From IMG/VR virus record IMGVR_UViG_3300031998_000010: a DNA stretch of 64,000 nt; one strand, written 5' to 3'. Below are positions 38,221-42,286 of this stretch, in pieces. Position numbers and translations under genes: made by a program. The notes under the pieces were generated by a model that worked only from the letters and a program-made list of their open reading frames with translations, made no database searches and was not told the DNA's origin. The stretch comes from a virus. Its lineage: Duplodnaviria; Caudoviricetes. The first letter of the stretch is position 1. Every line of letters begins with the position of its first letter.

Positions 38221-40380
38221 TTATGCGACCTTCCACTTGAGGAGGTCTTCTTTTCTTTCAACAATTCTATCTGAAAGAGCCTTCTTGCCTTCAACTATAT
38301 CGTGAACATCTTCATCATATGTGTTATAAGCTATGATTGTATGGATTGTGACTGCTGACTTTGTTCCGATTCTGTGAGCTCTATCGCAAGCCTGTTCCTT
38401 CGCACCGTTTGTCCAAGGCTCGTCTAAGAAAACAACTTCTGTTGCTGCCGTGAGCGTAAGTCCAACTCCTGCGGCGCCTGTTGTTGCGCAGAAAACTTTG
38501 ACTGAGTCATCTGTCTGGAATCTGTTGACGATTGCCTGACGGTCTGCATCAGGTGTCTCACCTGTGATGACGACAGGATTGAATCTCTTGAGTCTTTCAA
38601 TAGCAGGATTGATTCCCTGAATCCAATTGCTATATACGATGACCTTTGTGCCGGAGTAGACTGCTTCCTCTACTATCTGCTCAAGACGGTCGAGCTTCGG
38701 ATTGTTCTTGATGAAATTGAAAGGACCAATTCCACCTGAAACCTGACGAAGTCTCATCTTGATTGCAAGCATGCACTCTGTGTTAATGACATCTGAAAGC
38801 TCCGGGTCTTCAATTGCATCGTCGATAATCTGATTGTAGAGCTTTTTCTGCTCATCTGTGAGGTCGACGTATTCGTTCTTGTAAATCTTTTCGGGAAGGT
38901 CAAGAACTTCGCCCTTCGTTCTACGAATCATGATAGCACCTAACTGAGCTCTAAGCTGGTCAATGTTCTTGTAGCCTACTACGTTGCCCCATTCGTCATA
39001 TCTGCAGAAGTGATACTTAAACTGCTTGAATTCGTAGGGCTCATATCCTAACCACTTGAGGATTGAGTAAAGGTCTAACGGAGTATTGATTAAGGGTGTA
39101 CCTGTCATCGCGATGCGATAATAAGGCTGAAGCTGAACCAAGCCCTGACCCTGCTTGGTCTCAAGATTCTTACATCTATGAGATTCGTCTGCGGCTATCA
39201 TGTTGATTATACCTGAATCACAAAGCTCTTTAAGTTTTGCGGCTATCTCAGGGTTTCTAAGGGACTCAATATTTGTGATTATGAAATAATGAGAGTCAAT
39301 AGCAGAGCCTGTGCCTAACTCGTTGATGTCTGCAAGCTTATCGGCATTGCTACCGATGTAGGTCTTGCCGGAACGCCTCATCGTTCTCTGACCGAGGATA
39401 TAACCTGTCTCGTTGGAGTGCTTTGCAATCTCCTCAACCCAGTTCCACTTAAGAGAATTTACACAAGCGATGATAAGGCAGTGCTTGAAATTCTGAGCGT
39501 TCTTGCGAATAAGTGCAAGGTCAATAACTTCCTTTGTCTTGCCCAAGCCTTGGTCGTCTGCAAGAAGGAATCTGCTGTGCTCTAAGCCGAACTGAATGCC
39601 TTCCATCTGGTGGGTCATCGGTTCTGTCTTGAAGTTGAAACCTGCATCAACTTCAACGGCATCGGGAACGATTTCTTCGTTCTCGATAACCCAATTGAAG
39701 CTAGAAAGTGCGGACTTGAGTTCGTTCAACTCTCTGTACTCGATTTCCCATCTCTTGTTATCCGGGTCCCAGAATCTAGCTCTGAGAGCCTTGACAGAAG
39801 CAACTACTTCCTTATTGTAATCGAAAGTAAGGAAAACTGAGAAGTCATCTGTGCATCTGATAGGCTTATCAATCCTAGCAGTGATTGTGGCAACTGCCTT
39901 GGTCTCTGCTACTTCGACTTCGCCTTCTGCCTTCTTCTCGATGATGGTCGGAAGGTCTTCAAGAGAAACTATGTTCTCTTCGTCATCTTCGATGGACCTG
40001 ATGGCAGACTTTGCAATCCAGCCGGTCCAAGTTGTGTTGACTAACTTCTCGCGATAAGAAGCTACTGCTTCGTTGAGCTCTTCCTCTGTATCAAAAGGGC
40101 TGACGTAATTGTGGCCACCGCAGATAGGACCAATTCCGAAGAACTGAGAAATCTTGTTGGTGAGCGGTCTTCCGCATCCCATGCAAGTTGTGATAATCCT
40201 CTGCTTAATATCGCCGTGAAGCGTCATCTTAACCATCCCGCGAGTTTCAGCAAGCTTACCGCTAGTGTACATGACGACTAACGGCATCGGGATATCATCG
40301 TTGAACTTCTGCATAAAATCGAAACCATCAGAAGACTTAAGGGTCATCCAAGGCTTAACTTCTACTCTGTACTCTTTCAT
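38221..40380 (-). CDS. SNF2-family helicase with N-terminal Zn-binding (DUF6011-like) and HARP-like domains
   Basis: LADDQGLGKT (motif I), DESH (II), TGTP (III), GVGLTL (V), QACDRAHRIG (VI); CMGCGRPLT...GIGPIC. Confidence 0.9.
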   Translation of the reverse strand: MKEYRVEVKPWMTLKSSDGFDFMQKFNDDIPMPLVVMYTSGKLAETRGMVKMTLHGDIKQRIITTCMGCGRPLTNKISQFFGIGPICGGHNYVSPFDTEEELNEAVASYREKLVNTTWTGWIAKSAIRSIEDDEENIVSLEDLPTIIEKKAEGEVEVAETKAVATITARIDKPIRCTDDFSVFLTFDYNKEVVASVKALRARFWDPDNKRWEIEYRELNELKSALSSFNWVIENEEIVPDAVEVDAGFNFKTEPMTHQMEGIQFGLEHSRFLLADDQGLGKTKEVIDLALIRKNAQNFKHCLIIACVNSLKWNWVEEIAKHSNETGYILGQRTMRRSGKTYIGSNADKLADINELGTGSAIDSHYFIITNIESLRNPEIAAKLKELCDSGIINMIAADESHRCKNLETKQGQGLVQLQPYYRIAMTGTPLINTPLDLYSILKWLGYEPYEFKQFKYHFCRYDEWGNVVGYKNIDQLRAQLGAIMIRRTKGEVLDLPEKIYKNEYVDLTDEQKKLYNQIIDDAIEDPELSDVINTECMLAIKMRLRQVSGGIGPFNFIKNNPKLDRLEQIVEEAVYSGTKVIVYSNWIQGINPAIERLKRFNPVVITGETPDADRQAIVNRFQTDDSVKVFCATTGAAGVGLTLTAATEVVFLDEPWTNGAKEQACDRAHRIGTKSAVTIHTIIAYNTYDEDVHDIVEGKKALSDRIVERKEDLLKWKVA

Positions 40381-40524
40381 ATGCGACCTCCTGTCCTATG
40401 GGACTATTGATACTATGGGTCAAAATACCTATCGTGACATTATTATTATAATATAAAATAGAAGAAAAATAAAGATGTTGAAATAATTTCAAAATTGTAT
40501 ATGTAGATTATAAAATTGATTTTA

Positions 40525-40612
40525 TAAATTGAAACCGGCTACCCAATTCAGAAAGTAGCCGGTCGAGCCAAGGAGATTAACAACAATGGAAAATTCTGAT
40601 TGCTGCTATACT
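40525..40612 (-). ncRNA. Putative small RNA 2 (hairpin - antiSD - terminator)
   Basis: AATCGTTATA at 40616-40625, 5' hairpin, single-stranded AUCUCCUU, 9-bp GC-rich stem (40534-40563). Confidence 0.55.
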
Positions 40613-40635
40613 TCATATAACGATTCATATTTATC

Positions 40636-40725
40636 AAAAAAAATAAGAACCTCTTACGCCGCTCAATACGCAAGAGGTTCGAGGAAACGAGTATCATGCA
40701 CCTAATCTTAAGCATGACTTCTATT
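40636..40725 (-). ncRNA. Putative small RNA 1 (hairpin - antiSD - terminator)
   Basis: AATCGTTATA at 40729-40738, UCAUGC/GCAUGA hairpin, CUCGUUUCCUC, terminator stem 40647-40680 followed by a U-tract. Confidence 0.55.
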
Positions 40726-40739
40726 TACTATAACGATTT

Positions 40740-40943
40740 TTATTTACCTAAAAATTTATTCCAATCACAACCGCATTTGATAAATTTCTCAATGTCATCA
40801 AAGTATGAAAATGTATGATAACTTCGACCTGGAAGGTTTCTATCTGGAATAAGAAATGAAAGGCCTGATACAGATTCTATATCAGGCTCTACTGTTACAT
40901 CGTAACCTTTGTATTTGAAAGTATTTCGTTCTCTATCAGTCAT
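40740..40943 (-). CDS. Hypothetical protein
   Basis: Probable start MTDRER after a GAGAGG RBS. Confidence 0.55.
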   Translation of the reverse strand: MTDRERNTFKYKGYDVTVEPDIESVSGLSFLIPDRNLPGRSYHTFSYFDDIEKFIKCGCDWNKFLGK

Positions 40944-41016
40944 GTCATTATTTCCTCTCAATTTATTAATTATAATTAACAAATTTTACTATGAAACATT
41001 CATTAATCAATTTTGC

Positions 41017-42252
41017 TTAAGCTAAATTTACTTTAATTGGTTGTGACATTGCAACCGCTATCCCATTTGCATATGCATTTGGGAATACTTTCTTAAGAAT
41101 CTGTAAGCTGCCATTTACATCGGCGTTTATTAGATTGCCAGAATTTGTTCTAAACAAGCCTCGATGAATTCTACGACGCTTATCATAATTTGATTTAATT
41201 GGTTCTTCGGAGTCCAGAAAACTTGTTCCTGAAGTATAAGATTCTTCAGTTATTCTAACACCAATTCCTATCTCTCTTGACTTGTATTGAATTTGTTCAA
41301 TTAACATGTTAAATGGAATTTGAATAAAGTGTTGATTATTCTTTTTGCCCAATTCGCAATTTTGCTTCCATTCTTTATTATGCCCAATTACAATGCAGGT
41401 TACGTCATGCGCTTCAGCATAATTAACAATATACCGACTAGACTTATGAATATAATCTTTAATCCTAGCGTTTCGCTTATCTGTTAATTTTTGCTGACGA
41501 TTTGTCCAATAAAGGTTATTGATTCTTTTAGCTGCTTCTTTATAATGAGCTAGATTTTTATTGTAATATTGATTAATTGACTTAAGACCTTTACCGTTTA
41601 TTATAAATGGCTTTTCATTAAAATTATTTGTTACGGTTGCTAAGTTATCTACGCCTATATCAATACTTAAATATCTCCCATTATCTATTTTCTTTTCATC
41701 GGGAATTTCTATTCTATAGACCACCTCCGCTATAATTTTATTTTTCTTAGGTATAAATCTAATTTGCTGAATTGATTTGAAATTTTCCCTGTCTATACAG
41801 ACAGGACTTAAAGTAAACCCATCAAATGATTTAGGGAAATAAATGATGTTATCCTTTATTGTGATGGCTTGCCCTGTCACAATAAGGACCATTGCACAAA
41901 CCTTTTTCTTGTATCTAGGTAATCTAGGTCTACCTAGATATTTATTCTTATTATTTGACCAATCTTTAATTGATTTGAAAAAAGACCTCCAATTACTGTC
42001 TAACAGACGCAGTGTTTGCTGAGCTGATTGGGCATGAGGCATATTTCTATAATCAGGATATTCAATATCTTGTTTAAGTAATTTATCTAAATCTTGATAT
42101 TGAATATATTTTCCATTGTTAATGAATTCCTGACGTATAAGGTAATTTGCATGATTATATAAGTTCTTAGACATAACACAGAAATGCAAGAATAACGCAA
42201 AATTAGGATTATTTGAAGAAATAGGAATTTGTTCAACTCGTTCTATAATCAT
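41017..42252 (-). CDS. tnpB: RNA-guided endonuclease TnpB family protein (solo)
   Basis: SKNLYN, AQSAQQTL, PRLPRYKK, RuvC-I SIDIGVDN, IVIG, EESYTS, RuvC-III NADVNGS. Confidence 0.9.
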   Translation of the reverse strand: MIIERVEQIPISSNNPNFALFLHFCVMSKNLYNHANYLIRQEFINNGKYIQYQDLDKLLKQDIEYPDYRNMPHAQSAQQTLRLLDSNWRSFFKSIKDWSNNKNKYLGRPRLPRYKKKVCAMVLIVTGQAITIKDNIIYFPKSFDGFTLSPVCIDRENFKSIQQIRFIPKKNKIIAEVVYRIEIPDEKKIDNGRYLSIDIGVDNLATVTNNFNEKPFIINGKGLKSINQYYNKNLAHYKEAAKRINNLYWTNRQQKLTDKRNARIKDYIHKSSRYIVNYAEAHDVTCIVIGHNKEWKQNCELGKKNNQHFIQIPFNMLIEQIQYKSREIGIGVRITEESYTSGTSFLDSEEPIKSNYDKRRRIHRGLFRTNSGNLINADVNGSLQILKKVFPNAYANGIAVAMSQPIKVNLA

Positions 42253-42286
42253 TATCTATCCTCTTCAAATATTTCTTCGCTACCTA

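Follow-up and report, generated by a model that had tools for sequence, protein, structure and literature searches.

Two tandem units with the build of anti-Shine-Dalgarno small-RNA genes upstream of a phage helicase gene

Upstream of a SNF2-family helicase gene, a 64,000-nucleotide stretch of DNA from a Caudoviricetes phage carries two tandem units that have the appearance of dedicated small-RNA genes: either one has a promoter and a terminator to itself, and neither strand holds a conserved open reading frame (ORF). This stretch, called the window here, corresponds to bases 2045-66044 of a 175,559-bp IMG/VR virus record (IMGVR_UViG_3300031998_000010; about 35% GC); in the window as in the whole genome, almost all genes lie on the minus strand. 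We consider it somewhat more probable than improbable that the units give rise to two non-coding RNAs of about 87 nt which act in trans, as small RNAs (sRNAs) directed against translation-initiation regions (TIRs), with the helicase gene and a sigma-like gene named p220 as candidate targets and with a possible feedback on phage gene expression.

The initial annotation of the window had described two consecutive minus-strand units of about 90 nt, each composed of a promoter-like motif, a hairpin, a pyrimidine (CU) tract and a terminator, and all of these parts were indeed present between 40520 and 40738. In unit 1, a 7-bp 5' hairpin (40718-40693) precedes the tract UUUCCUC (40687-40681), which lies in the unpaired stretch ACUCGUUUCCUC and is followed by a 13-bp terminator stem (40680-40647) and a U tract (40646-40636) with U8; this terminator was also recovered by a consensus terminator scan. 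Unit 2 has a longer 5' hairpin (40608-40578, 10 bp), the tract UCUCCUU(GG) at 40576-40568, which is unpaired and reads UCUCCUUGG in minus-strand order, a 12-bp terminator stem (40564-40533) and a U-rich tail (40532-40522) weaker than that of unit 1. The predicted folds of both RNAs were far more stable than those of shuffled controls (-29.6 kcal/mol, z = -4.0 for unit 1; -28.4 kcal/mol, z = -4.05 for unit 2). The complements of the two tracts, GAGGAAACGAGTATCATG and AAGGAGATTAACAACAATG, each form an initiation region with Shine-Dalgarno (SD) sequence, spacer and AUG, as had been proposed; correspondingly, a CAU was found 10 nt 5' of the tract in either RNA. The claim that the units contain no minus-strand ORF has to be corrected in its wording, since a 55-codon ORF (40715-40548) runs through both of them. 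Its conclusion stands: this ORF is not a gene, because it lacks an SD, crosses terminator 1 and promoter 2 and is interrupted by non-triplet indels in close relatives. Searches against Rfam 15, whose families include sRNAs of phages and of Bacillota, returned only chance-level matches to unrelated families in this region of the window at E-values up to 10, and none that reached the gathering score in nine related loci. The coordinates of the units and of the features discussed below are collected in Table 1.

Table 1. Position of the two units and of associated features (window coordinates unless marked as genome coordinates).
Feature	Position	Strand	Remarks
Promoter motif P1, AATCGTTATA	40729..40738	-	-10-like TATAGT at 40732-40727
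Small RNA 1 (family A), ~87 nt	40636..40722	-	fold, terminator scan, homologues
Promoter motif P2, AATCGTTATA	40616..40625	-	-10-like TATATG at 40619-40614
Small RNA 2 (family B), ~88 nt	40522..40609	-	fold, homologues
Helicase promoter and leader	40381..40455	-	TATAAT -10 at 40450-40445, AATGTCA..ATAGG..TATCAATAGTC, SD GGAGG
SNF2-family helicase gene	38221..40380	-	downstream neighbour; Pfam SNF2-rel_dom and Helicase_C
67-aa gene, function unassigned	40740..40943	-	upstream neighbour; stop codon abuts P1
p220, 220-aa sigma-like gene	genome 96863-97525 (L031:464-1126)	-	second copy of helicase promoter/leader upstream
Plus-strand mini-ORF 1, 39 aa	40586-40705	+	good ribosome-binding site
Plus-strand mini-ORF 2, 40 aa	40696-40818	+	good ribosome-binding site; overlaps 67-aa gene on other strand

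The motif preceding each unit recurs throughout the genome. Exact copies of AATCGTTATA were found 8 times in the window and 22 times in the complete record, always on the coding (minus) strand and never on the plus strand, and nearly all of them lie in gaps between genes, 10-100 nt ahead of an SD and an ATG. The element has the form AATCGT followed by TATAnT, and no -35 sequence is conserved. The same bias to one strand was present in two related IMG/VR records (12 of 13 and 6 of 6 copies), where a control pattern occurred once each. Copy number and strand restriction argue that the motif is no chance repeat; on this evidence it is a real promoter-like element, whose activity as a promoter we infer. 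Some copies that head protein genes or other stretches of the genome have features of their own. At genome positions 120502, 121362 and 56550 (window 54506), the motif heads protein genes and is followed immediately by terminator-like hairpins with T runs before the SD, which could be promoter-proximal attenuators or 5' stabilisers. Downstream of genome position 167389 (window-equivalent 165345) it heads a long stretch devoid of ORFs, in which AACCGCCACCCCTCAAAT and ATTTGAGGGTTGGCGGTT can engage in long-range pairing. At L012:2826-2880, in one of the related loci introduced below, the upstream gene has a terminator hairpin (AACTTCCT...AGGGAGTT and then a T run) whose loop contains the motif. 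Transcripts starting at the motif would have no 5' terminator arm and would therefore escape termination.

With the helicase as anchor, we collected the region upstream of it from 16 further loci in IMG/VR and JGI metagenomes (helicase identity about 55-96%; numbered with the prefix L). Units of the same build occupied this slot in 10 of the 16, which together with the window gave 17 units in 11 loci. Units of the type of window unit 1 (family A), characterised by UUUCCUC and the terminator loop AUUGAGCGG, were found in L020, L021, L023, L025, L026 and L027, those of the type of unit 2 (family B), with CUCCUUGG and the terminator CCGGCUAC, in L020, L021, L022, L023 and L027. Further units in L002/L003, L004/L010 and L025, with CCUCCU or CUCCUU as tract, could not be aligned to either family. 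In each of the two family alignments, three terminator pairs had changed on both sides in a compensatory manner in at least one sequence. Unrelated hairpins have taken the place of the family B 5' hairpin in L022, L023 and L027, and the CU tract stayed. The notion of a modular system, put forward in the initial annotation, was thus borne out: 5' hairpins and terminators were swapped between relatives with retention of the tract. Where the helicase homologue was about 46% identical (L005-L008, L013-L015), the phages were unrelated and no such units were found. Scans of IMG/VR with patterns of the family A and B signatures returned chance matches only, in unrelated and often high-GC contigs.

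The CU tract was present in all 17 units, and partition-function folds showed it to be exposed: the mean probability of being unpaired was 0.85 for the anti-SD core, compared to 0.46 for the whole RNA, and exceeded 0.7 in 14 of the 17 (0.97 in window unit 1). Anti-SD sequences are otherwise rare on the sense strand of non-coding DNA of this genome, with 18 anti-SD pentamers in about 12.5 kb as opposed to more than 120 SD-like ones. In the slot upstream of the helicase, an anti-SD followed every promoter copy at +32 to +59 with the exception of a bare promoter in L004, whereas no promoter of a protein gene in the same loci had one within 110 nt, if a single copy in L002/L003 with an anti-SD at +100 is set aside. 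The start-codon complement reported in or next to the hairpin of the window units generalises as well: of 12 distinct 5' parts, 8 have a CAU 7-11 nt 5' of the core, as against 2.0 expected from shuffles (P = 1.1e-4). By virtue of this placement the RNA mirrors SD, spacer and AUG of an initiation region. Judged from these comparisons, the CU tract is the conserved functional core of the units. Two other anti-SD sequences in the genome deserve mention in their own right. Around genome positions 153700-153772 (window-equivalent 151650-151728), the SD of the next gene lies within AACGATTTGGGAGG, with which the anti-SD CCTCCCGAATCGTT pairs in cis; the hairpin so formed would sequester the ribosome-binding site. 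After the end of a gene at about 142190-142260 (window-equivalent about 140208), a hairpin, CAUACCUCCG and a strong terminator (GCCGCCACCT...AGGTGGCGGC and a T run) follow each other; no AATCGTTATA promoter was found at that place.

An image of SD and AUG on the complement could also mean that it is the plus strand that functions, its two mini-ORFs encoding small peptides, possibly paired with the antisense RNAs in the manner of a type I toxin-antitoxin system. In the window, these ORFs have good SD-ATG spacing, overlap each other by 10 nt and are preceded by a weak plus-strand sigma-70-like promoter at 40488-40516. The initial annotation had named their expression as the outcome that would speak against sRNAs. 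Comparison does not bear this out, since the ORFs are not conserved: they vary between 0 and 40 codons, the equivalent ones in relatives having 0, 1, 3, 4, 5, 7, 9, 13, 17 or 30 codons of unrelated sequence. Even in L020, where the N-terminus of the helicase is 96% identical, only 9 codons are left (MENSNCYLI-stop). The peptides are not hydrophobic and have no PHROG family, and ORF 2 overlaps the 67-aa gene in a genome with nearly all genes on the minus strand. The comparative data largely refute this reading, which we rejected as very improbable. Because the plus-strand ORFs are unconserved, we regard the SD and AUG image as an antisense feature of the minus-strand RNA.

Two further explanations accept the transcriptional signals and do without a trans-acting RNA. 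The units may serve transcriptional punctuation only, with tandem terminators ending the upstream operon, the AATCGTTATA copies acting as restart promoters, the RNAs being by-products and the CU tract being incidental or needed for processing or stability. The locus marks the boundary of an operon, just behind a stop codon, which would fit such a role, as would terminator-promoter pairs at other sites of the genome (one of them at window 58835), the six relatives devoid of units and the L012 promoter within a terminator loop, which has no RNA body. It would be hard to explain in this way why promoters should stand before terminators that leave nothing to be expressed, here two in a row and again in ten relatives, why the rare anti-SD was kept and left unpaired in 17 units, why CAU is enriched at a spacing typical of ribosome-binding sites and why a 5' hairpin persists despite replacement of its sequence. 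We consider punctuation alone unlikely. Slightly less likely still is a cis-acting leader or attenuator of the helicase operon, in which most transcripts from P1 and P2 would stop at the terminators, regulated read-through by antitermination would carry others into the helicase and the anti-SD would fold back on the helicase SD. Such a function would account for the constant position of the units directly upstream of the helicase, for the weak U tail of terminator 2, for the bare AATCGTTATA promoters that feed the helicase leader directly in L004 and L012 and for the high ranks of the L002 units against the helicase TIR given below. It is difficult to reconcile with the very strong terminator 1, with its 13 bp and U8, with the poor match of the window RNAs to the helicase TIR, with the unremarkable ranks of the cognate helicase pairs in L020-L027 and with a separate promoter and leader between units and helicase. 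This TATAAT-type promoter with its leader was kept directly before the helicase in all loci down to about 60% helicase identity, and transcription of the helicase is therefore independent of the units.

For two trans-acting sRNAs, the reading we prefer, the following sequence of events may be envisaged. Each RNA would be made from its own promoter of the AATCGTTATA class, a class which also heads non-structural genes of the phage, and would end at its own intrinsic terminator, with an unpaired anti-SD tract left between the 5' stem-loop and the terminator hairpin. Pairing would start from this exposed tract at the ribosome-binding site of a target mRNA and would spread from there over the start codon, into the 3' arm of the 5' hairpin. 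The 30S subunit would be excluded and the mRNA probably exposed to decay. Since the position of CAU generalises across the units, such a toehold-then-unzip mechanism, as suggested in the initial annotation, is plausible. In this way, the RNAs would probably shut off the translation of phage early genes, with a sigma-factor-like gene as the best candidate. If that factor in turn read the AATCGTTATA promoters, a delayed negative feedback closing the early phase would result.

This candidate, p220, came to our attention through the helicase leader. The genome has exactly two copies of this promoter/leader of about 75 nt, at window 40381-40455 before the helicase and at genome 97526-97610 (L031) before p220; the shared sequence runs TATATTATAAT, an A-rich stretch, AATGTCA, ATAGG and TATCAAnAGTC. 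A 13-mer of it, CACATATCAACAG, also abuts the SD of the gene next downstream of p220. The p220 protein has 57 homologue clusters in metagenomic phage contigs. It had no Pfam match at E-values up to 1, Sigma70_r2 and Sigma70_r4 included, and no PHROG family; a search of the genome for PF04542 found nothing, and a profile search of the Protein Data Bank (PDB) sequences with the p220 alignment gave noise only. The nearest named clusters in a language-model protein atlas were viral Sigma70_r2 and sigma-70 of Bacillota (score 0.94). An AlphaFold (AF2) model calculated from 25 homologues had a mean predicted local distance difference test (pLDDT) score of 78, and about 17 of the best 20 matches in a structure search without Foldseek (VIA) were sigma factors. 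Residues 20-110 aligned to sigma domain 2 (Z 5-6.7, root-mean-square deviation about 3.3 A over about 90 residues) and residues 142-220 to sigma domain 4 (Z 4.3-5). Foldseek also listed sigma chains for the model, all at E-values of 0.27 or worse. Taken together, p220 is probably a divergent two-domain sigma factor composed of sigma 2 and sigma 4.

In three phages, pairing with the TIR of p220 or with that of the helicase was among the three best. All ranks were computed against restricted TIR backgrounds, and the p220 TIRs of relatives were taken from separate contigs of the same samples; p220 was not found on the fragments of the relatives' IMG/VR records (G001-G003). Window unit 1 ranked first of 409 against the p220 TIR and the L004 unit second of 175. 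In L002, unit b was first of 234 against the helicase TIR and second of 234 against that of p220, and unit a third of 234 against the helicase. The 8-mer CUCCUUGG of family B is complementary to CCAAGGAG, which occurs at only two TIRs in the genome, one of them that of p220. Moreover, the p220 ORF has a conserved start, AUGUCACAGUUCAGAAC, that pairs with the 5' part of each of L002_b, L004_u and L025_u1, three units unrelated to one another (p = 0.02, 0.01 and 0.005 from shuffles); combined by Fisher's method for all 12 distinct units, p was 0.02. The helicase as a general target, in cis or in trans, was unsupported for the window and for L020-L027, and we dropped it in this form: the window RNAs matched its TIR over 4-5 nt only, with ranks 77 and 224 of 409. 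If pairing with p220 and the helicase is real, compensatory changes should be expected, such as CCAAGGAG with CUCCUUGG versus CCUAGGAGG with CCUCCUACGG.

Several observations weigh against the proposed function or its targets. As to p220, it was picked post hoc, after the window data: it was the second-best match of unit 1 in a scan of 487 phage SD-plus-start sites and was noticed because a copy of the helicase promoter/leader lies upstream of it. In that scan, no match was better than those of whole-seed shuffles. Shuffles preserving the core gave p values of only 0.04-0.07 per RNA, and the shuffle p values as a whole lay at 0.03-0.07. A cross table of sRNA/TIR pairs revealed no specificity for cognate over foreign partners, foreign TIRs pairing equally well. 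Window unit 2 had no energetic preference for p220 or for the helicase, and neither unit paired with the complete helicase and p220 leaders better than shuffles did, 12% of which equalled or bettered unit 1 on the full p220 leader. The sigma assignment combines middling Z-scores (5-6.7) with the lack of a Pfam match, and that p220 should read the AATCGTTATA promoters is pure conjecture. As to the units themselves, they are dispensable, being absent from L012, L017, L024, L028, L029 and L030, and the first L002 unit has no promoter of its own and would be the 3' untranslated region of the upstream gene. Because six loci do without units, we regard the cassettes as accessory. The weak shuffle p values, the lack of cognate specificity, the neutrality of unit 2 and the post hoc choice of p220 make the assignment of targets only a lead, and a doubtful one which we would expect to fail more often than to hold. 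With this reservation, p220 and the adjacent helicase would be the best candidates, with moderate support. The initial annotation had allowed for silencing of host mRNAs, possibly of defence genes, or of phage mRNAs; nothing points to the former, and the latter can be upheld to the same moderate degree for p220 and the helicase.

A more far-reaching version of the same idea would see the slot upstream of the helicase as a hot spot of exchangeable 'TIR-mirror' cassettes, each with an anti-SD and an anti-AUG at ribosomal spacing between an interchangeable 5' hairpin and a terminator. Their RNAs would pair with the ribosome-binding site of the phage sigma factor that reads their promoters and with the co-regulated helicase, and would so act as a negative feedback timer from early to middle expression in phages of 175-200 kb from rumen and similar metagenomes. 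We regard this as an unlikely extension.

As to the setting of the locus, no match to it was found by blastn among 50,697 GenBank phages, and the window contains no tRNA or tmRNA genes. The 67-aa gene upstream of the units has homologues at the same position in L004, L020, L023, L026 and L027 and no family in Pfam or PHROG. Just upstream of it, a TnpB gene of the IS200/IS605 family lies on the minus strand (41017-42252), with Pfam matches to OrfB_IS605 (PF01385, 1.5e-17) and Cas12f1-like TNB (PF07282, 5.8e-7) and a match to the transposase family PHROG 506 (1e-45). The element is missing from the relatives, whose homology breaks off at about 42272-42286 and picks up again at about 40943-40954, and the genes flanking the insertion overlap by ATGA in L023 and L027. 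Read from this comparison of loci, the insertion is recent, measures about 1.3 kb (window 40955-42285) and carries TnpB alone. Any guide (omega) RNA of the element would be expected at about 41100-40955. We also considered whether TnpB and its guide RNA form part of the sRNA units and rejected this, the 67-aa gene lying between the units and the end of the insertion at about 40955. On the helicase side, a palindrome, TTGAAATAATTTCAA, is located at window 40478-40492, some 30-40 nt ahead of the TATAAT box of the helicase, and is a candidate operator; similar sequences (TTGAATTATTTCA and others) lie at the same place in L002, L021, L023, L024 and L029. Some of the helicase homologues (P0004, P0058 and P0062) are 849-1073 aa long and contain intein or LAGLIDADG-type Pfam domains (PF14890, PF14528 and PF05203), which suggests that the helicase of some relatives has inteins.

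Little has been charted of the regulatory RNAs that large lytic phages encode. In phage T4, the nuclease RegB cuts GGAG. If our proposal is true, other phages would do with RNAs directed against ribosome-binding sites what RegB does in T4, namely time their expression programme, and would do so with small, portable translation-repressor modules. Even a conservative reading leaves two unannotated RNA families and a defined class of promoters in a poorly known phage clade. The RNA families are compact and well delimited, their logic mirrors SD, spacer and AUG with comparative support, and one of the candidate targets is sigma-like.

Full-text literature searches for a phage-encoded anti-Shine-Dalgarno small RNA found no phage RNA of that kind. 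The passages of a 2025 review on phage sRNAs that were retrieved by keyword (PMC12197685) dealt with sRNAs from temperate phages of Gram-negative bacteria and held no anti-SD sRNA of a lytic phage of the Bacillota type. According to the same passages, the c4 antisense RNA from the immI operon of phages P1 and P7 pairs in trans with the ribosome-binding region of a phage mRNA, blocks its translation and displays its complementary segments in open parts of the folded RNA (PMC12197685). In being a phage-encoded small RNA that blocks a phage ribosome-binding site in trans, c4, as described there, resembles what we propose here. There are differences, too: c4 is cut from an operon transcript of a temperate Gram-negative phage and has its target in the same operon, whereas the units described here have their own promoter and terminator, belong to a large, apparently lytic and SD-rich (Bacillota-type) phage and have a candidate target 55 kb away. 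The seed here would be a generic anti-SD plus anti-AUG, unlike that of c4, and Rfam gave no match to c4 in this region.

Comparable seeds are known from bacterial chromosomes. RsaE/RoxS and the LhrC sRNAs of Listeria are trans-acting RNAs of about 90-100 nt with an intrinsic terminator, in which unpaired C/U-rich motifs pair with G-rich SD sequences; they are under stress regulation, and several CCCC/UCCC motifs are located in their loops. The units share with them the size, the unpaired C/U-rich anti-SD motif and the terminator. They differ in being phage-borne and in having a single tract resembling the 16S rRNA tail (UUCCUC, CUCCUU or CCUCCU) between two hairpins, together with a start-codon complement, and no relationship to these families was found in sequence or in Rfam. 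The delimitation of a small RNA by a phage promoter and a nearby intrinsic terminator ahead of a long operon recalls oop and the 6S RNA (pR'-tR') of phage lambda. Of these, oop is cis-antisense to cII, and the 6S transcript is a substrate of Q antitermination and lacks an anti-SD seed; in the present phage, by contrast, the downstream gene is served by a promoter and leader distinct from those of the units, whose conserved core consists of an anti-SD. By these comparisons, the units match no curated family in Rfam, and their proposed function, that of a trans-acting base-pairing sRNA, is of a kind already known. Functionally, the closest known systems are c4 RNA and the sRNAs of Bacillota with C-rich seeds, RsaE/RoxS and LhrC.

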